A DNA stretch of 48,773 nt from Thermodesulfobacteriota bacterium (GTDB lineage: Bacteria > Desulfobacterota > GWC2-55-46 > JADFVP01). The stretch lies in contig JBHHUW010000001.1 of assembly GCA_046753945.1 (NCBI GenBank), positions 1 to 48,773 on the forward strand, read 5' to 3'. Shown in pieces: positions 22,915 to 34,581 of this stretch; the stretch's first letter is position 1, and each line of letters begins with the position of its first letter. Under the pieces are notes generated by a model. That model did no database searches. It was not told the origin of the DNA and saw only the letters and a list, made by a program, of their open reading frames with translations. Both the position numbers and the translations under genes were made by a program.

Positions 22915-22988
22915 TGGAGCGGGCGATGGGAATCGAACCCACGTGTGCAGCTTGGGAAGCTGCCATTCTACCATTGAATCACGCCCGC
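22915..22988 (-). tRNA. tRNA-Gly (anticodon CCC), CCA encoded
   Basis: The reverse complement GCGGGCG-TG-ATTCAATGGTAGAAT-G-GCAGC-TTCCCAA-GCTGC-ACAC-GTGGGTTCGATTCCCAT-CGCCCGC-TCCA folds as a cloverleaf with a 7-bp acceptor stem. Confidence 0.9.
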
Positions 22989-26646: not shown

Positions 26647-26675
26647 TTGACAGTCAGATAAATATATATTAAAGT
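26647..26675 (+). promoter_or_regulatory. sigma70-like promoter upstream of the SAM riboswitch
   Basis: TTGACA, 17-nt spacer, TAAAGT, about 25 nt before the aptamer P1. Confidence 0.5.
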
Positions 26676-26701
26676 TTCAGATACAATTGAATAAATGGAT
26701 A

Positions 26702-26864
26702 TCTTATCCAGAGTGGCGGAGGGACTGGCCCGATGAAACCACAGCAACCGGTGCTATTTAATAGTATGACAGGTGCTAAATCCAGCAGGGTTTTTGAAGA
26801 AAAAAACCCTGAAAGATAAGAAGATTTGCTGGAGACTCTTCTTATCAAAGAAGAGTTTTTTTTT
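26702..26864 (+). promoter_or_regulatory. SAM-I (S-box) riboswitch with terminator/antiterminator expression platform
   Basis: P1 is TCTTATC...GATAAGA. Conserved core: CAGAGTGGCGGAGGGACTGGCCCGATGAAACC...GCAACC...GGTGCTAAATCCAGCA. Terminator ACTCTTCTT-ATCA-AAGAAGAGT plus T9 at 26835-26864. GATAAGAAG (the P1 3' strand) is exactly complementary to CTTCTTATC in the terminator 5' arm. Confidence 0.9.
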
Positions 26865-26965
26865 GCCCTCAAGACTCCATCTGCTGTGCTGATGGAGAGC
26901 CCATGAGGACGAGGTAGTTGTCTTACCAACTATAGACGTAGAGTCACTCTACAGGAGATACTTAT

Positions 26966-28219
26966 ATGAAGTATATGAAAGGATTAAAGTGCAGGGAGTG
27001 CAGTAAGACATATCCGCTGGACCCCATCCATGTCTGCGAGTTATGTTTCGGCCCTCTTGAGGTTGAGTATGATTACGGTAATATAGGCAAGGTCCTTACC
27101 AGAGAACTTATTGAGAGCAGGGCGCCCAACATGTGGAGGTACAGGGAGCTTCTTCCCATAGAAGGCGACCCCACGGTAGGCAACAACTCGGGCTTTACCC
27201 CGCTGGTTAGGGCTTATAATCTGGGAGAGGCCCTGGGTGTAAAAGAGCTCTACCTTAAGAACGATGCCGTTAATTTTCCTACTCTCTCATTTAAGGACCG
27301 CGTAGTATCCGTGGCCATATCAAGGGCAAGAGAGATGGGCTTTGATGTTATTGCCTGCGCCTCTACGGGCAACCTTGCAAATTCCGTTGCCGCCAACTCC
27401 GCGGCATGCGGTCTTAGCAGCTATGTCTTTATCCCCTATGACCTTGAGCAGACCAAGATCACGGGGACCCTTGTCTACGGCACGAACCTCGTGGGCATAA
27501 AGGGCACCTATGACGAGGTGAACAGGCTCTGCAGCGAGATAGGCGGTAAATACGGCTGGGCCTTTGTGAACATCAACATAAGACCCTTTTATGCCGAGGG
27601 CTCAAAGACCTTTGGTTATGAGATAGCCGAGCAGCTTGGCTGGAAACTCCCCCAACATGTAATCGTGCCCATGGCCGGCGGTTCCCTTATTACCAAGATT
27701 GCAAAGGCCTTTAAGGAGTTCAAGAACCTTGGTTTTGTAGATAGTCCTCCGGCCAGGATTTACGGCGCCCAGGCTACGGGCTGTGCCCCTATTGTAACGG
27801 CTGTAAAGGAGAAGACCGAGCTTCTGCGCCCGGTAAAACCTGATACCATTGCCAAATCACTTGCCATAGGCAACCCTGCCGACGGCTTTTACTCGGCAAA
27901 GACCATTCGCGAAAGTAATGGCTGGGCCGAGGACGTATCAGACGATGAAATTGTAGACTCCATGAAGCTCCTTGCCGAGACAGAGGGCATATTCGCCGAG
28001 ACCGCCGGAGGAGTTACCCTCGGTGTAACAAAAAAACTTATTGAGCAGGGCCGCATTCCCCGTGACGAGTCCATAGTGGTCTCCATTACAGGTAATGGCC
28101 TTAAGACCCAGGAGGCTCTCGTTGGAAAAATTGCCGCTCCTCCTGTTATAGAGGCGAGACTTGCCGACTTTGACGACCTTGTAAACGGCGGCAAGGTGAA
28201 AAAAGCCGTGGCAAAGTAG
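26966..28219 (+). CDS. threonine synthase-family PLP enzyme with N-terminal zinc ribbon (candidate O-phosphohomoserine-dependent homocysteine synthase)
   Basis: CRECSKTY...CELCFG zinc ribbon, FPTLSFKDR PLP-lysine motif, and ASTGNLANS. It is the first gene after the SAM-I riboswitch. Confidence 0.8.
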   Translation: MKYMKGLKCRECSKTYPLDPIHVCELCFGPLEVEYDYGNIGKVLTRELIESRAPNMWRYRELLPIEGDPTVGNNSGFTPLVRAYNLGEALGVKELYLKNDAVNFPTLSFKDRVVSVAISRAREMGFDVIACASTGNLANSVAANSAACGLSSYVFIPYDLEQTKITGTLVYGTNLVGIKGTYDEVNRLCSEIGGKYGWAFVNINIRPFYAEGSKTFGYEIAEQLGWKLPQHVIVPMAGGSLITKIAKAFKEFKNLGFVDSPPARIYGAQATGCAPIVTAVKEKTELLRPVKPDTIAKSLAIGNPADGFYSAKTIRESNGWAEDVSDDEIVDSMKLLAETEGIFAETAGGVTLGVTKKLIEQGRIPRDESIVVSITGNGLKTQEALVGKIAAPPVIEARLADFDDLVNGGKVKKAVAK

Positions 28220-28384
28220 CGGCAGGTGAGGGGTAGAGCGGAGCGGAGCAAAAATCCCTTTATGAGGCTTTTATTGTAAAGAGGGGCATTACTCTGGTAT
28301 CATATAAGGATAAACATTAACCATACTACTTCCCCCCCCTTTTTTTTTGTAGTTGAGGGGGGCTTTTTCAAGGAGGCTCTTTAA

Positions 28385-29374
28385 ATGACAGACCATTATA
28401 TAGAAGATAAGACCAATAAGGTGGACCTTGATCTTGAGAAACTCAAGGGTAAGGTTAACTTTAATGACCTTAAGTCCGGCGGGTTCATAAAGCAGAGGCA
28501 AAAGGACCTCTTTACCGTAAGGCTGCGCTGTCCCGGCGGCAGGATGACTACGGAAAAACTTGTGGAGATATCAAAGCTTGCTGAAAAATACAGTAAAGAA
28601 GGCGTGGTGCACTTTAGCTACCGCCAGTCCCTTGAGATATTATATGTGGACTACAAGGACTTTCACGCACTTGTGGCAGAGCTTGAAAAAATTGGCCAGA
28701 AGGTTGCCTCCTGCGGGCCCCGTGTGCGTGTGCCCACTGCCTGCGGCGGCTGCGAGTACAACCCCAATGGTCTTATAGACGCCCAGGCCATGGCCCGTAT
28801 GGTAGATGAAAAGTACTTTGGAACAGAGACCCCTCATAAGTTCAAGACCTCTTTCTCGGGCTGTCCAATTGATTGCTCAAGGACTGTGGAGATGGACCTT
28901 GGCTTTCAGGGCGTTGTAGACCCCGAATGGGTTCAGGACCTCTGCACTGGCTGCACTATCTGCGCCGAGGCCTGTAAAGAGGGGGCCATTGTGGCCCACC
29001 CTGATACAGGGGAACCTATCTTCAATGTAAATAAATGCCTCTACTGCGCCGACTGCATAAGGGCCTGCCCCACGGAGGCCTGGGTCCCCAGGCGTCACGG
29101 TTTTATGGTGCGCGTAGGCGGCAAACATGGCCGCCATCCACTGGAAGGCGTTGAGGTCTGCCGTTTTCTGCCCGAGGAAAAGGTAAGCGATGCCATAGAT
29201 ATGACCGTAAAGTGGTATCAGGCAAATGGTAATAGTTTCGAGAGGATAGGAAGCGTGCTGCAGAGGCTGGGCATGGATGATTACATGAAGCACATGGCCC
29301 CGGTATTTGGCGATATGGCCGTAGTGCCGGAGCATCCGCCAACAGATAGGCCGTTAATCGACCTTGAGGATTGA
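28385..29374 (+). CDS. small sulfite/nitrite reductase-like protein with inserted 2x[4Fe-4S] ferredoxin domain (DsrA/B/AsrC-like architecture)
   Basis: NiR/SiR ferredoxin-like repeat (FTVRLRCPGGRMTTEKL), SGCPIDC (CxxxC sirohaem/FeS motif), CTGCTICAEAC and CLYCADCIRACP ferredoxin motifs. AAGGAGG RBS. Confidence 0.7.
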   Translation: MTDHYIEDKTNKVDLDLEKLKGKVNFNDLKSGGFIKQRQKDLFTVRLRCPGGRMTTEKLVEISKLAEKYSKEGVVHFSYRQSLEILYVDYKDFHALVAELEKIGQKVASCGPRVRVPTACGGCEYNPNGLIDAQAMARMVDEKYFGTETPHKFKTSFSGCPIDCSRTVEMDLGFQGVVDPEWVQDLCTGCTICAEACKEGAIVAHPDTGEPIFNVNKCLYCADCIRACPTEAWVPRRHGFMVRVGGKHGRHPLEGVEVCRFLPEEKVSDAIDMTVKWYQANGNSFERIGSVLQRLGMDDYMKHMAPVFGDMAVVPEHPPTDRPLIDLED

Positions 29375-29475
29375 GAAGGGCGTGGGGGCGCGGACCCAAA
29401 GACATGTGATACATGGGGGAAAAACCCTCTTTAAGGCATAACGGCAAAAAAAAACAATGTAATACAGAGGAAGAT

Positions 29476-29715
29476 ATGAGCGATTTAGAGGCAAAGGAAA
29501 GTGTTGATCTACGCGGGGTGCTCTGCCCCACCAATTTTGTAAAGACAAAGCTAAAGCTTGAGAACATGGAGCCCGGTGAACTCCTTGAGGTAGTACTTGA
29601 TGCCGGTGAGCCCATTGCAAACGTGCCAAAGAGCGTTAAGGAAGAAGGGCATAAGATAGTCAAGGTAACAAAGGATGACGGCTTCTTCAAAATTCTCATA
29701 GAAGTAGCCGGGTAA
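29476..29715 (+). CDS. TusA/SirA-like sulfurtransferase
   Basis: DLRGVLCP active-site Cys-Pro motif near the N-terminus, ~79 aa. Internal ATG with a GAGGAAG RBS preferred over the ORF-track start. Confidence 0.75.
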   Translation: MSDLEAKESVDLRGVLCPTNFVKTKLKLENMEPGELLEVVLDAGEPIANVPKSVKEEGHKIVKVTKDDGFFKILIEVAG

Positions 29716-29743: not shown

Positions 29744-30028
29744 ATGAGTGTAAAGGTGAGGATACCAACACCGCTACGCAAGATAACAAAGGACCAGGAT
29801 GAGGTCGTGGCCGAGGGAACAAATGTCACCGAGGTTATAGAAGACCTTGAGAAGAACTACCCCGGGCTCAAAGAGAGAATCTGCGAGGACGACGGAAACC
29901 TCCGCCGCTTTGTAAACCTCTATCTCAATGACGAGGACATACGCTTCAAGGATAACCTCAGTACCGCTGTTGCCGATAATGACGAACTCTCCATTATCCC
30001 GGCCATAGCAGGCGGAGGTAAGCCTTGA
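29744..30028 (+). CDS. CysO/ThiS/MoaD-family sulfur-carrier protein with C-terminal GG-GKP extension
   Basis: 94-aa beta-grasp-like protein. RFVNLYLNDEDIRF...LSIIPAIAGGGKP: a Gly-Gly C-terminus followed by extra residues. Confidence 0.8.
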   Translation: MSVKVRIPTPLRKITKDQDEVVAEGTNVTEVIEDLEKNYPGLKERICEDDGNLRRFVNLYLNDEDIRFKDNLSTAVADNDELSIIPAIAGGGKP

Positions 30029-30261
30029 AAAGAAAGGTCTATCTTACTTATCCGCCGGAGAAGGTGAAGGAGCCCCTGCTATGTCAGTGTGTGAAAAAGT
30101 TCAATGTTCTCACTAACGTAAGGCAGGCCTCTGTTACGGATAAGATAGGGATTGTGGCCCTTGAGCTCGAGGGTGAGCCCGGTGAGATAGAAAAAGCCAT
30201 TGATTTTTTTACTGAAAATGGCGTAAAGGTGGAGCCTATTGAGATGAATATTATAGAGTAG
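30025..30261 (+). CDS. stand-alone NIL domain protein
   Basis: 78 aa matching the MetN C-terminal NIL pattern (LTYPPEKVKEPLLCQCVKKFNVLTNVRQASV...GIVALELEGEPGEIEKAIDFFTENGVKVE). TTG start inside a TTGA overlap with the carrier gene stop. Confidence 0.65.
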   Translation: MKRKVYLTYPPEKVKEPLLCQCVKKFNVLTNVRQASVTDKIGIVALELEGEPGEIEKAIDFFTENGVKVEPIEMNIIE

Positions 30262-30431: not shown

Positions 30432-30535
30432 TTATAAACTTGATGTTTTTACTAAAGTAATAGAAATACCTTATAAAAAAAGGGGTTTTACATGGAATCT
30501 CTATTATTGGTCCAATATTACGGGTGAGGTCTTTA

Positions 30536-31495
30536 ATGAGTAAGCATAATACATTGCAGAGCATTTCAGAGGAAGACGGACCATCGGCCGGTAAGGCCAG
30601 GTTCTCTGCCCTTGAACTTGTAGGCAATACGCCTCTTGTGAGGATAAACAGGATAACAAAAGACCTTCCCGGCGGTGTTGAGATATACGCCAAACTGGAG
30701 TCCTGCAATCACGGCGGCTCTGTAAAAGACAGGCCGGCGCTGCGCATGATAGAGGACGCGGAAAAGAGCGGGCGCCTTACAAAGGAAAAGATAATACTGG
30801 ACTCCACCTCAGGTAATACGGGCATTGCCTACGCCTGGATAGGCGCTGTAAAGAACCATCGCGTGGAACTCGTAGTCCCTGAGAACGTAAGCTCGGAGCG
30901 AAAGAAAATACTTGACGCCTTTGGAGCCAGGGTGATTTTTTCAAGCCCCTTTGAGGGGTCTGACGGCGCTATCCGCCTTGCCTGGAAACTCTACGTGGAT
31001 AACCCGGAAAAATACTGTAAGCTCGACCAGTATAATAATCCCTCAAACCCCCTTGCCCATTATTACGGCACAGGGCTTGAGATAATAGAGCAGACAAGCG
31101 GCGCAATTACCCACTTTGCTACTACCATTGGAACAGGCGGCACCATAATGGGGACCATGCGAAGGCTGAAAGAATTTAACAACAAGATCAAGGTCATCGC
31201 CATAGAGCCCGATAACCCCATGCATGGACTTGAGGGACTTAAACATATGGAGTCCTCCATAGTGCCGGGTATCTATCATGAGGCCTCACTTGACGGTAAG
31301 GTCCAGGCTTCTACAGAAGAGTCATATGAGATGACCAAGAGGCTCGCAAGAGAAGAGGGTCTGCTTGTGGGCCAGTCATCGGGCGCTGCCATGCTCGGAG
31401 CCCTTGAGGTGGCAAGGGGGCTTAAAAAAGGCATTGTAGTAACTATCTTCCCCGACGGCGGAGATAAATATCTCTCCACACGTCTCTGGGAATAG
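30536..31495 (+). CDS. cysM: cysteine synthase B-like PLP enzyme (CysM/CysK family)
   Basis: GNTPLVRINR, GGSVKDR (PLP lysine), TSGNTGIA, TIGTGGT and QSSGAA motifs. Confidence 0.85.
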   Translation: MSKHNTLQSISEEDGPSAGKARFSALELVGNTPLVRINRITKDLPGGVEIYAKLESCNHGGSVKDRPALRMIEDAEKSGRLTKEKIILDSTSGNTGIAYAWIGAVKNHRVELVVPENVSSERKKILDAFGARVIFSSPFEGSDGAIRLAWKLYVDNPEKYCKLDQYNNPSNPLAHYYGTGLEIIEQTSGAITHFATTIGTGGTIMGTMRRLKEFNNKIKVIAIEPDNPMHGLEGLKHMESSIVPGIYHEASLDGKVQASTEESYEMTKRLAREEGLLVGQSSGAAMLGALEVARGLKKGIVVTIFPDGGDKYLSTRLWE

Positions 31496-31838: not shown

Positions 31839-32303
31839 ATGGGTCTGCTCTCAAAGTTCAAGAAAAAAGATAAATTAAGAGTTCCCGAGGACGTCTATAA
31901 CGTTATCATTGAGCATGTAAAAGAGGAGTATCCCCATGAGTGCTGCGGAGTGCTCATAGGCAACGCCATGATGGGAGGAAGAAAAATATTCTACGTTGAG
32001 AAATGTACTAACCTCAACCGCGAGAGGGCCCATGACAGGTACATGATGGACCCCATGGAGATAAACCTGGCGGACAAAGGCGCCCGTTCTCAGTCCCTGG
32101 AGCTGATGGGTTTTTATCACTCCCATCCGGACCACCCGGAGAGCCCCTCGGAGTATGATCGCGAGATGGCCCAGCCGGGCTACTCCTATATAATAGTCTC
32201 CGTTAAAGGCGGCACCGAGGTCACCATGAAGTCCTGGACCTTTGATGAGGAAGATGAACCCTTCAGGGAAGAGCCTCTGGAAATTGCTAAACCGGCTAAG
32301 TAA
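31839..32303 (+). CDS. JAMM/MPN+ metalloprotease (Mec+/HcyD-like)
   Basis: Upstream Glu (HECCG) and an exact HSHPDHPESPSEYD match to HxHx7Sx2D. Confidence 0.85.
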   Translation: MGLLSKFKKKDKLRVPEDVYNVIIEHVKEEYPHECCGVLIGNAMMGGRKIFYVEKCTNLNRERAHDRYMMDPMEINLADKGARSQSLELMGFYHSHPDHPESPSEYDREMAQPGYSYIIVSVKGGTEVTMKSWTFDEEDEPFREEPLEIAKPAK

Positions 32304-32455: not shown

Positions 32456-33271
32456 ATGGACTTTACAGACGAGCAGATAGAGCGTTACTCAAGACACATA
32501 ATACTACCCGAGGTAGGGGGAAAAGGACAGGCAAAGCTTCTTGAGAGCAAGGTTTTTGTCCTTGGAGCCGGCGGCCTTGGTTCTCCGGCGCTTCTGTACC
32601 TTGCCGCCGCGGGAGTAGGCACTATTGGTTTTGCCGACGGCGATGTAGTGGATGTTAGTAATCTGCAGCGCCAGATAATACACAACAACAATACCGTTGG
32701 CATGCCAAAGGTAAAGAGCGCTCGGCAGAGTATAGAGGCCCTTAACCCCGATGTTGTGGTGCAGCCTTTTGAGGGCCGTCTTGGGACGGAGAATATCCGT
32801 GAGGTGATAAGCGGTTATGACGTGGTCCTTGACGGCTCGGATAATTTTCCTACCCGTTACCTCATGAACGACGCCTCTTTCTTTGAGGGCAAGACCCTTG
32901 TATCAGGCAGTATGTTCAGGTTTGACGGTCAGGTCTCCGTATTTAAGCCCCATGAAGGCCAGCCCTGCTACAGGTGCCTCTACCCGGAGCCTCCGCCCCA
33001 GGGCATGGTGCCCAGCTGTCAGGAGGCCGGGGTCCTTGGCGCCCTTGCCGGCGTAATCGGAGTCCTGCAGGCCGTTGAGGCCATAAAAGAGGTACTCTCT
33101 ATTGGAAAGTCCCTTGCCGGAGAGCTCCTCATATTCGATGCCCTTGGCATGAACTTTCGTAAAGTAAAGGTGCGTAGAGACCCTGAGTGCGCGCTCTGCG
33201 GCGAAGGCGAAAAGGCTACCATCAAGGAACTTGCCCTCTATGAACAGGCCCCCTGCGAGCTCCGTTCCTGA
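32456..33271 (+). CDS. ThiF/MoeB/HesA-family E1-like adenylyltransferase (no rhodanese domain)
   Basis: RYSRHIILPEVG, GAGGLGSP nucleotide loop, DVSNLQRQ, and CYRC...CALC zinc cysteines. 271 aa. Confidence 0.85.
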   Translation: MDFTDEQIERYSRHIILPEVGGKGQAKLLESKVFVLGAGGLGSPALLYLAAAGVGTIGFADGDVVDVSNLQRQIIHNNNTVGMPKVKSARQSIEALNPDVVVQPFEGRLGTENIREVISGYDVVLDGSDNFPTRYLMNDASFFEGKTLVSGSMFRFDGQVSVFKPHEGQPCYRCLYPEPPPQGMVPSCQEAGVLGALAGVIGVLQAVEAIKEVLSIGKSLAGELLIFDALGMNFRKVKVRRDPECALCGEGEKATIKELALYEQAPCELRS

Positions 33272-33291: not shown

Positions 33292-34581
33292 TTGTACTTT
33301 AGAGGCAGGCCTTATGCAGGAAGAGGGGGCCAAAGAGAGGCGGGGCAGTCACCTATTTTGAAAAACCGGAATTATTTTAATAACCCCGGGGCATTGAAGA
33401 TAGACCTCATGCTCCGGGGCGCGGCAATAGAAGACCCGGAGGCCAGGGCCAGGGCCTGCGGAGCCACGGGTATAGATATACTCTTGCCGCAGAAGGTCCT
33501 TGTCAATATACCCTGCGAAGACTGGTTTACAGTACGGTCGCCTTACGTTATAAAAAAGGCCGCCGGTAAAAAGGGGTATATCCTTACTAACGGCAGTGAG
33601 AGTGTGGCGGTAAGTATCCTCGATCCGCCGGAGTTTTACACCCGCAAGACCGCTTCAGGCGTACGTTTTGGCGATATCGCCGTAACCCACGGGAGTTACA
33701 CCGTTATAACTCCCGACAAGAGGTGCGGTTTTTTTAAATCCAGCGCCCAGTGCCGCTACTGCGCCGGCAACTTCAGCAGAGACGCCTCCGAGGCTGATGC
33801 GCCCGTCTATACGGTGGAAGAGGTCCTTGAGACCGCAGGGGCCGTATTGAAAGAAAAGGCCTCTGGCATTATCTACCTCTCTATTGGTTTTAGCGAGGGT
33901 GATGACGGTGGAATCAAATTCCTCGAGCCTTACGTAAGGGCCATTAAGTCCCACTTTAACTGCCTTGTAGCCGTAGAGGCCCTGCCTCCGGCAAGTAACG
34001 AGTGGATAGAGAGGGCCTACGCCTTTGGCGTTGACTCCATGCTCTATAACCTGGATATCTTTGACAAGGAACTTTTTTCCGTCATCTGTCCCGGAAGGGC
34101 CGGGCTTATTGGAAGACAGAGGACCCTTGATGCCCTGAAATACGCCGCAGGTATCTTTCCCAGCGGCACAGTGGCCTCGCACCTCATTGTAGGGCTCGAA
34201 CCACCGGGCTCAACGATTCAGGGTATTGATTTTCTAACAGATTCCGGGGTTGTGCCCATACTGCCTATTTTTCGCCCCTCACGTGAGAGGCCCCTTGATG
34301 TTACGGACCTTGAGGCAGAGGTCATTATCCCGGTCTATCAGCACCTTTACAGGACGCTGAAGAAGAAGGGTATAAATTTTAACTGGGTACGTGATATAAG
34401 CATGGTCACTACCCCTGTAGAGGGAGGATACCTGCTTACAGATGAAGATGGCGCGCCGTCGCTCCTTGATAATTTTTACGATTCAAGGCTCGGTATGAAG
34501 GCGGCCTGGGGGCTAAGTGCCCTTCGAAGACGGCTAAGGGTAAAAAAGACGCCAAAGGAGGACCCTCCTGAGGGGTCATAG
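33292..34581 (+). CDS. radical-SAM-like (BioB/ThiH-like TIM-barrel pattern) protein with non-canonical Cys motif; start uncertain (ATG at 33409 possible)
   Basis: CGFFKSSAQCRYCAG (C-x8-C-x2-C, with Ser where the first Cys of CX3CX2C would be). Then SIGFSEGDDGG, NLDIFDKELF and HLIVGLE, resembling radical-SAM strand motifs. Starts 20 nt after thiF-like. Confidence 0.45.
   Translation: MYFRGRPYAGRGGQREAGQSPILKNRNYFNNPGALKIDLMLRGAAIEDPEARARACGATGIDILLPQKVLVNIPCEDWFTVRSPYVIKKAAGKKGYILTNGSESVAVSILDPPEFYTRKTASGVRFGDIAVTHGSYTVITPDKRCGFFKSSAQCRYCAGNFSRDASEADAPVYTVEEVLETAGAVLKEKASGIIYLSIGFSEGDDGGIKFLEPYVRAIKSHFNCLVAVEALPPASNEWIERAYAFGVDSMLYNLDIFDKELFSVICPGRAGLIGRQRTLDALKYAAGIFPSGTVASHLIVGLEPPGSTIQGIDFLTDSGVVPILPIFRPSRERPLDVTDLEAEVIIPVYQHLYRTLKKKGINFNWVRDISMVTTPVEGGYLLTDEDGAPSLLDNFYDSRLGMKAAWGLSALRRRLRVKKTPKEDPPEGS

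Follow-up and report, generated by a model that had tools for sequence, protein, structure and literature searches.

A SAM-I riboswitch ahead of a probable MetM-type homocysteine synthase, annotated as threonine synthase, in an uncultured Thermodesulfobacteriota lineage

What does a SAM-I riboswitch control when the gene behind it belongs to the threonine synthase (ThrC) family? We address this question for a 48,773-nucleotide (nt) stretch of DNA from a Thermodesulfobacteriota bacterium (contig JBHHUW010000001.1 of assembly GCA_046753945.1; hereafter the window), in which a leader for S-adenosylmethionine (SAM) precedes a ThrC-like gene at 26966-28219. A sequence-only reading had proposed that SAM switches this gene off and that its product serves the synthesis of homocysteine rather than threonine. 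The proposed role is supported by paralogy, by the placement of the riboswitch, by a gap in the pathway, by the phylogenetic tree and by synteny with a sulfur carrier gene. Based on these comparisons of sequences and genomes, we consider it likely that the protein is a homocysteine synthase of the thiocarboxylate-dependent MetM type and not the threonine synthase of the cell.

The SAM-I leader

The textbook SAM-I aptamer that had been claimed is borne out by a match to the full length of RF00162 in Rfam (model positions 1-108 of 108), which scores 86.1 bits compared to a gathering threshold of 44.4 (E 4e-19). No other SAM riboswitch occurs in the window or anywhere else in the assembly (coordinates of all features are given in Table 1). 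The bases of P1 were read and the pairs checked by script, giving UCUUAUC paired with GAUAAGA. The 9-bp terminator with a T9 run stands as well, with a stem at 26835-26856 and the run (26856-26864) directly abutting it. The competition between the P1 3' strand and the terminator is real and spans 10 base pairs, yet CTTCTTATC (26838-26846), which had been taken for the 5' arm, consists of six arm nucleotides and three loop nucleotides and is not the arm proper. The antiterminator takes the P1 3' strand together with most of the terminator 5' arm and thus excludes both P1 and the terminator, so the predicted pairings form a classic OFF-switch layout. At a high SAM level, P1 would be locked, the terminator at 26835-26864 would form and transcription would end about 100 nt short of the start codon. 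At a low SAM level, the P1 3' strand and the 5' side of the terminator would pair as the antiterminator and the gene would be transcribed.

The whole leader folds 4.4 standard deviations better than its dinucleotide shuffles, none of 200 shuffles being equal to it. Taken alone, the antiterminator hairpin reaches -12.1 kcal/mol versus -9.6 kcal/mol for the terminator. The fold with both P1 and terminator, in turn, reaches -51.4 kcal/mol versus -45.5 kcal/mol when the antiterminator is enforced, i.e., the OFF state is favored in the ligand-free leader. The modeled energies thus imply that the switch would have to decide kinetically and co-transcriptionally, as is usual in S-box leaders. Promoter-like sites, of which one lies 5' of the aptamer, are not more numerous in the region than expected from shuffles. 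A methionine-rich leader open reading frame was looked for between terminator and start codon (26865-26965) and none was found. The Shine-Dalgarno sequence is located about 90 nt 3' of the T-run, outside the pairing proposed for the switch.

We have compared 24 leaders from relatives within the genus, the family and the order. In all 24, P1 has a 3' strand conforming to GATAAGAAG, and a complementary arm of the CTCTTCTTA type downstream, the hairpin and a T-run of 5-9 residues are present as well. When leaders from the same genus and family are aligned, no variation is seen in the aptamer core and the terminator block is conserved, and the Shine-Dalgarno sequence and the ATGAAGTAYATG start are kept across the aligned leaders. 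The last hairpin stem of the aptamer (P4 by position) co-varies among same-genus relatives, with GGGTTT/AAACCC, GGATT/AATCC and GAGAC/GTCTC as observed pairs. The spacer of about 100 nt from the T-run to the Shine-Dalgarno sequence is conserved neither in sequence nor in length among same-genus relatives, indicating that there is no second conserved element between terminator and start codon.

This conservation bears on the idea that the riboswitch has decayed or acts purely at the level of translation, the terminator-like hairpin being incidental. Indeed, the hairpin has only three G-C pairs and is not listed by a simple terminator scan, and the OFF fold is thermodynamically favored even without ligand. 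But the aptamer covers the whole model with a score twice the gathering threshold, the hairpin, the T-run and the complementarity to the P1 3' strand are kept in 24 of 24 leaders despite variable loops and spacer, and the ribosome binding site lies well past the T-run and apart from the proposed pairing. We therefore regard a decayed or purely translational switch as hardly credible.

Paralogy, pathway and phylogeny of the ThrC-like protein

The SFKDR motif and the N-terminal CxxC...CxxC zinc ribbon ascribed to the protein are both present, at residues 108-112 and at C9/C12/C24/C27, respectively. The four cysteines are retained in each of 39 homologues, and behind the ribbon follows the Pfam PALP domain (228 bits) of an enzyme dependent on pyridoxal phosphate (PLP). 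Cysteate synthase was considered as an identity of this protein and rejected, TIGR03844 giving 62.4 bits with a cut-off of 324.9.

A search of 30 relatives with TIGR00260, the NCBIfam equivalog model for thrC, revealed two thrC-family genes above its cut-off in nearly all near-complete genomes. The first has a frame of about 360 amino acids (aa) and scores 296-324 bits. The second, with 278-296 bits and a frame of about 417-470 aa, is the orthologue of the window's gene, and a CysM-like protein is encoded about 3.5 kb away. The shorter paralogue, as represented by a same-genus relative, scores 472, 425, 407 and 399 bits with the ThrC structures of Aquifex, Thermus, Mycobacterium and Bacillus. 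Its identity amounts to 56-60% with the four solved bacterial ThrCs, 35% with that of Arabidopsis and 34% with the window's ThrC-like protein. In all five complete relatives checked, its gene adjoins a phosphoglycerate-mutase-like homoserine kinase of TIGR02535 (539-561 bits, cut-off 446), and the two genes constitute a housekeeping thrC-thrB pair. The second, riboswitch-free thrC that had been anticipated is thus found in the relatives beside a homoserine kinase; it was not found in the source genome itself, which is taken up below.

The riboswitch goes with the longer copy. It is present in 26 of the 30 relatives with 48-97 bits and, with one exception (G002), in one copy each. For 24 of these 26, riboswitch and zinc-ribbon copy share a contig and a strand, the riboswitch being placed some 260-520 nt before the match to that copy; in the other two, a contig end interrupts the arrangement. 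Near the shorter thrC, none of the 30 relatives searched has a SAM riboswitch, and their genomes (G001-G030) yielded no second SAM-I site elsewhere, indicating that metH, metK and other genes in this order are not under SAM-I control. In relative G002, identical riboswitch copies of 96.8 bits occur at C33:17657-17769 and C80:6544-6656; this is probably a duplication of the assembly and not a second regulated gene.

The need for a homocysteine synthase was examined in five relatives with 100% completeness. All five encode a homocysteine methyltransferase of the MetH type (248-264 bits, frames of 808-874 aa), whereas MetE was not found in any of them. The same five genomes contain no real member of PF01053 (MetB/MetC/MetY/MetZ), all matches being partial and not above 31 bits, and neither DUF39/HcyBio, nor MetX, nor MetA/HTS was found in them. 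A ThrB of the GHMP type was not found in these genomes either, and the TIGR02535 kinase takes its place. The presence of MetH indicates that the cells need homocysteine. As MetA, MetX, the PF01053 enzymes and DUF39 are absent, only the zinc-ribbon ThrC paralogue is left as a candidate for the homocysteine synthase, with O-phosphohomoserine as the sole activated homoserine predicted for the complete relatives.

Phylogeny, which had been set beforehand as a test of the assignment, places the protein outside the bona fide threonine synthases. In a careful maximum likelihood tree (IQ-TREE, 50 sequences), the five characterized ThrCs and the kinase-linked paralogues form a clade with support of 97/83, or 100/98 when one further representative is included. 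Across this 100/98 branch, the window's protein is grouped with its orthologues and with the riboswitch-linked homologues of Zetaproteobacteria, anammox bacteria, Binatia, Auribacterota and Actinoplanes/Micromonospora. A quick tree of 112 sequences is concordant on the separation from ThrC. Some zinc-ribbon proteins with a canonical PTGSFKDR are placed nearer to the ThrC side, and consequently the ribbon alone does not define the MetM-like group.

When 17 sequences of the ThrC clade were compared with 42 of the MetM-like group, 33 columns appeared nearly invariant within each clade yet different between the two. Examples (T. thermophilus numbering) are T88L, S155N, N157R, R160Y, Q164S, GNAGN(187-191) to AGGSL, and A240S. 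Several of these positions, T88, S155 and R160 among them, are presumably located at the sites of T. thermophilus ThrC that bind the phosphate of the substrate or of PLP. Both clades share, without exception, the catalytic lysine of SFKDR and 30 other residues.

The sulfur-carrier cluster and the weighing of alternatives

Downstream of the ThrC-like gene, the window encodes a sulfur-relay cluster (Table 1) that supplies all listed parts of a MetM/MetO system, i.e., enzyme, carrier, JAMM protease and E1.

Table 1. Features of the leader, the ThrC-like gene and the downstream cluster in the window.
Feature	Position	Strand	Support
Promoter-like TTGACA-17-TAAAGT, 26 nt 5' of the aptamer	26647-26675	+	Consensus match, 10/12
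SAM-I (S-box) aptamer, P1 = 26702-26708 / 26815-26821	26701-26822	+	RF00162, 86.1 bits
Antiterminator, GATAAGAAGA (26815-26824) with TCTTCTTATC (26837-26846), 10 Watson-Crick pairs	26815-26846	+	
Intrinsic terminator, stem ACTCTTCTT (26835-26843) / AAGAAGAGT (26848-26856), loop ATCA, 9 pairs	26835-26864	+	
Spacer between T-run and start codon, Shine-Dalgarno AGGAG at 26953-26957	26865-26965	+	
ThrC-fold PLP enzyme of 417 aa with a Cys4 zinc ribbon at the N-terminus; proposed homocysteine synthase of the thiocarboxylate-dependent MetM type	26966-28219	+	
Zinc ribbon C9-x2-C12 ... C24-x2-C27	26990-27046	+	Pfam NinF-type match, 31 bits
Codon of PLP-binding Lys110, in SFKDR	27293-27295	+	Aligned to Lys61 of T. 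thermophilus ThrC
Small sulfite/nitrite-reductase-like protein with inserted ferredoxin domain	28385-29374	+	NIR_SIR, NIR_SIR_ferr, Fer4
TusA-family sulfurtransferase	29413-29715	+	PF01206, 75.9 bits
ThiS/MoaD-type sulfur carrier (MetO/CysO/HcyS-like), C-terminus ...AGGGKP	29744-30028	+	PF02597, 66 bits; SAMP1, 70 bits
Stand-alone NIL-domain protein	30025-30261	+	PF09383, 54 bits
CysM-like cysteine synthase	30524-31495	+	TIGR01138, 365 bits (under 394 cut-off)
JAMM/MPN metalloprotease (Mec/HcyD-like)	31839-32303	+	Prok-JAB, 90.7 bits
ThiF/MoeB-type E1 adenylyltransferase (MoeZ/HcyF-like)	32456-33271	+	PF00899, 267 bits
Variant radical-SAM protein	33292-34581		NF045502, 160 bits; Pfam Radical_SAM under threshold

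The sulfite-reductase-like protein may supply reduced sulfur and stands outside the core finding, and the CysM-like enzyme presumably draws on the same carrier for cysteine. The radical-SAM protein closes the cluster in many loci, including those of Zetaproteobacteria at about 30-35% identity. The only other Rfam match of the window is a tRNA gene at 22918-22988 on the minus strand (66.4 bits), located upstream of the riboswitch with ABC-transporter genes in between.

We have compared the proteins of the cluster by tblastn with 80 homologous loci at 64-90% identity. Most of these loci belong to metagenome-assembled genomes (MAGs) labeled Thermodesulfobacteriota or 'Deltaproteobacteria', and others to Zetaproteobacteria (including the isolate Mariprofundus micogutta ET2), Brocadiaceae, Scalinduaceae, Binatia and Auribacterota. 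Wherever the contig is long enough, the carrier gene is in most cases located 3' of the ThrC-like gene; it is the most constant neighbor across phyla and is usually accompanied by the NIL gene. This order occurs in Thermodesulfobacteriota, Zetaproteobacteria, anammox bacteria, Binatia and Auribacterota, and in other phyla than that of the window the two genes may be directly adjacent. Genes for the sulfite-reductase-like protein and TusA intervene in most of the nearest loci (mostly with a Thermodesulfobacteriota or 'Deltaproteobacteria' label). Zetaproteobacteria have weaker matches to these two proteins further downstream, and in three anammox loci the pair consists of the enzyme gene and the carrier gene alone. 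According to Rfam, 19 of 26 diverse loci, among them that of Actinoplanes derwentensis, carry a SAM-I riboswitch ahead of the gene or of the operon that contains it. In some Desulfuromonadales-like and 'Deltaproteobacteria' MAGs (L096, L092 and L094), the SAM riboswitch is located before a CysM-like gene, which is in turn followed by the ThrC-like gene, indicating that a cysteine-synthase-like gene is also SAM-controlled there.

The spread extends to actinomycetes. A Micromonosporaceae homologue is about 50% identical to the window's protein, and that of Actinoplanes derwentensis (LT629758.1; L141 4852-6284) is 52% identical. The latter is preceded by a SAM-I aptamer of 72.7 bits that ends 10 nt 5' of the start codon, so close that control is probably translational in this case. 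No carrier, E1 or JAMM gene lies within 5 kb of the Actinoplanes homologue, implying a carrier encoded elsewhere or another sulfur donor. The names of the homologue clusters include Micromonosporaceae and Thermoplasmatota, and homologue searches starting from high-GC representatives yielded members from Micromonosporaceae and Solirubrobacteraceae and none from Streptomyces.

By analogy with the known carrier systems, we propose the following reaction sequence. O-Phospho-L-homoserine from the phosphoglycerate-mutase-like homoserine kinase would be the substrate of the ThrC-like enzyme, which would eliminate the phosphate on PLP. Sulfur would then be added at C-gamma, the C-terminal thiocarboxylate of the carrier attacking the PLP-bound vinylglycine intermediate, followed by an acyl shift. 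The carrier gene 1.5 kb downstream of the enzyme gene would provide the thiocarboxylate, after activation of the carrier by the E1-like MoeB protein. The JAMM protease would trim the GKP tail of the carrier and also free homocysteine from the carrier adduct, and MetH would methylate homocysteine to methionine.

The same neighborhood could accommodate a ThrC-fold enzyme of another sulfur reaction, either homocysteine synthesis from free sulfide or a beta-replacement on O-phosphoserine, as in cysteate synthase or in CysO-dependent cysteine formation. A sulfite-reductase-like gene directly downstream would have sulfide or sulfite to hand, cysteate synthase is itself a ThrC-derived enzyme to which the protein shows a weak match, and the Actinoplanes homologue lacks an adjacent carrier gene. 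We nevertheless judge such a reaction to be unlikely: the TIGR03844 score is 62 versus 325 bits, a SAM riboswitch indicates methionine and not cysteine or coenzyme M, the CysM-like enzyme of the cluster already serves the O-phosphoserine step, and the carrier gene is the neighbor retained most constantly from phylum to phylum.

The reach of the riboswitch within the cluster depends on the 165-nt gap that follows the ThrC-like gene (28220-28384). This gap contains a promoter-like TTGTAA-18-TATCAT with an upstream TG at 28274-28303 and a C8-T10...G6 hairpin followed by CTTTTT. A structured element was also sought in the gap, and its stability is no better than that of shuffles (z = +1.4). Because of the promoter-like site, the riboswitch may control the first gene only; the sulfur-relay genes further downstream could be transcribed from a promoter of their own and would then be outside its control. 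This opens a further, rather doubtful possibility, in which a single pool of carrier thiocarboxylate, loaded by the sulfite reductase and TusA of the cluster, feeds both the CysM-like and the MetM-like enzyme. The riboswitch would gate the MetM-like gene only, with a downstream promoter in 28220-28384, and SAM would set the split of the shared pool between cysteine and methionine. If so, SAM would apportion protein-bound sulfur instead of turning a whole pathway on or off. The conserved Cys4 zinc ribbon might, in addition, be where the carrier docks.

Several points weigh against the assignment as a SAM-controlled homocysteine synthase. TIGR00260 accepts the window's protein with 284.7 bits (cut-off 167.1), and the database names for the protein and its relatives are all 'threonine synthase'. 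Two genes and a gap of 165 nt with a promoter-like site separate the enzyme gene from the carrier gene, and the ligand-free leader prefers the OFF fold, as described above. A second thrC was not found in the source MAG (1.40 Mb in 104 contigs, 57% complete), a negative result that is uninformative by itself at this completeness. The TIGR02535 kinase that flanks thrC in the relatives was not found in this 57% complete MAG either, indicating that the thrC locus of the source species is probably unassembled. In addition, the tie to the MetM of Streptomyces albulus appears to run through context and an actinomycete intermediate, and the MetM homologue of Microcystis is not fully MetM-like in vivo (PMC12172450).

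The family scores lend themselves to another explanation, a genuine second threonine synthase isozyme that is tied to SAM, e.g., to balance the threonine and methionine branches. Besides the TIGR00260 score, NF006050 gives 302 bits, just under its cut-off of 303, and the best solved relatives are all ThrC, with 158-192 bits for four bacterial structures (192 for that of Aquifex) and 116 for Arabidopsis. The identity to these five solved ThrCs (PDB 2zsj, 1uim, 2d1f, 6cgq, 1e5x) amounts to 29-36%, and that to B. subtilis ThrC to 36%. The lysine of SFKDR and the 30 other positions common to both clades fit an isozyme as well. However, TIGR00260 does not discriminate MetM-like proteins from ThrC, and no model named MetM is among the matches of the protein in NCBIfam release 20.0. 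The relatives already possess an orthodox thrC beside a homoserine kinase, the protein falls outside the clade of all characterized ThrCs with 33 clade-fixed differences, its linkage to a sulfur carrier extends across phyla, and the complete relatives would otherwise be left without a homocysteine source for MetH. A threonine synthase isozyme is consequently very improbable, and we retain the assignment as a MetM-type homocysteine synthase.

Comparison with known systems

The database name, combined with the acceptance of the MetM-like clade by TIGR00260 (about 285 bits versus 167), results in a systematic misannotation. Under the label 'threonine synthase', automated reconstructions will score this Thermodesulfobacteriota order as methionine auxotrophs with a redundant thrC, and Zetaproteobacteria, anammox bacteria and Binatia with the same gene pair run the same risk of mislabeling. 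The 33 clade-fixed positions provide a basis for a model that separates MetM-like proteins from ThrC, and also a guide for mutagenesis from beta-addition of water to gamma-addition of sulfur.

Compared to the housekeeping threonine synthases, the window's protein has the same fold, the same SFKDR motif for the PLP lysine and probably the same substrate, O-phosphohomoserine. It differs from the five solved enzymes by its extra Cys4 ribbon, by its low identity and by the 33 clade-fixed substitutions, and it belongs to a separate clade with another genomic context and another regulation. The leader is similar to the S-box met leaders of Bacillus (RF00162), with a four-helix aptamer and a P1 3' strand shared with an antiterminator that competes with a terminator. 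Here, however, the regulated gene is a ThrC paralogue instead of metI, metE or metK, and the element is the only SAM-I element per genome in the relatives that have one, apart from the single duplicated copy.

Carrier-dependent sulfur transfer is known from several pathways. In Mycobacterium tuberculosis, CysO, CysM, Mec+ and MoeZ produce cysteine from O-phosphoserine, in a pathway that is not known to involve a ThrC-like enzyme or a SAM riboswitch. The window shares the carrier logic of this system, and its cluster includes CysM-like, JAMM and E1 genes. Wolinella succinogenes reportedly makes methionine by a thiocarboxylate pathway of HcyS, HcyF, HcyD and MetY. This system resembles the one proposed for the window in that its cluster encodes a sulfite reductase and an E1-like enzyme, and in that sulfur is donated by a carrier thiocarboxylate whose pro-protein is trimmed by a JAMM protease. 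Condensation in Wolinella falls to MetY, of fold type I and acting on O-acetylhomoserine, whereas the candidate enzyme of the window has the ThrC fold; the partners of a Wolinella-type route (a PF01053 enzyme, MetX and MetA) were not found in the five complete relatives. The Wolinella pathway is credited to Krishnamoorthy and Begley (2011, J Am Chem Soc 133:379; reference 34 of PMC5764234).

The closest known counterpart is the MetM/MetO system of Streptomyces. Table 2 of GapMind 2026 (PMC13759103), citing Hasebe 2024, lists MetM ('MetO-thiocarboxylate-dependent homocysteine synthase'), the sulfur carrier MetO, MoeZ and Mec as experimentally supported. The route from O-phospho-L-homoserine in S. 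albulus is credited to Hasebe, Adachi, Maruyama and Hamano (2024, Appl Environ Microbiol 90:e0124724), the characterized MetM being UniProt A0A059WBP2. The metM gene of S. albulus has an upstream SAM riboswitch, and cyanobacterial ThrC homologues with a metO-like neighbor are about 52% identical to MetM (PMC12172450). MetM is 33% identical to B. subtilis ThrC (bioRxiv 10.64898/2026.09.15.751699), a distance similar to the 36% of the window's protein.

The likeness to the S. albulus system, drawn from context and published description, comprises a ThrC-homologous PLP enzyme apart from the housekeeping ThrC, the SAM riboswitch ahead of its gene, a ThiS/MoaD carrier along with a JAMM protease and an E1-like protein for activation, and O-phosphohomoserine as the only activated homoserine. 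In contrast to S. albulus, the host is an uncultured Thermodesulfobacteriota lineage, genes for a sulfite-reductase-like protein and TusA stand between enzyme and carrier, a stand-alone NIL protein is present and the carrier has a GKP tail past its Gly-Gly. The CysM-like gene in the window's cluster is a further difference and suggests that one carrier serves the synthesis of both cysteine and methionine. The type of pathway was already published in 2024, and the window probably adds to it a mislabeled new example, an expected extension and not a new principle.

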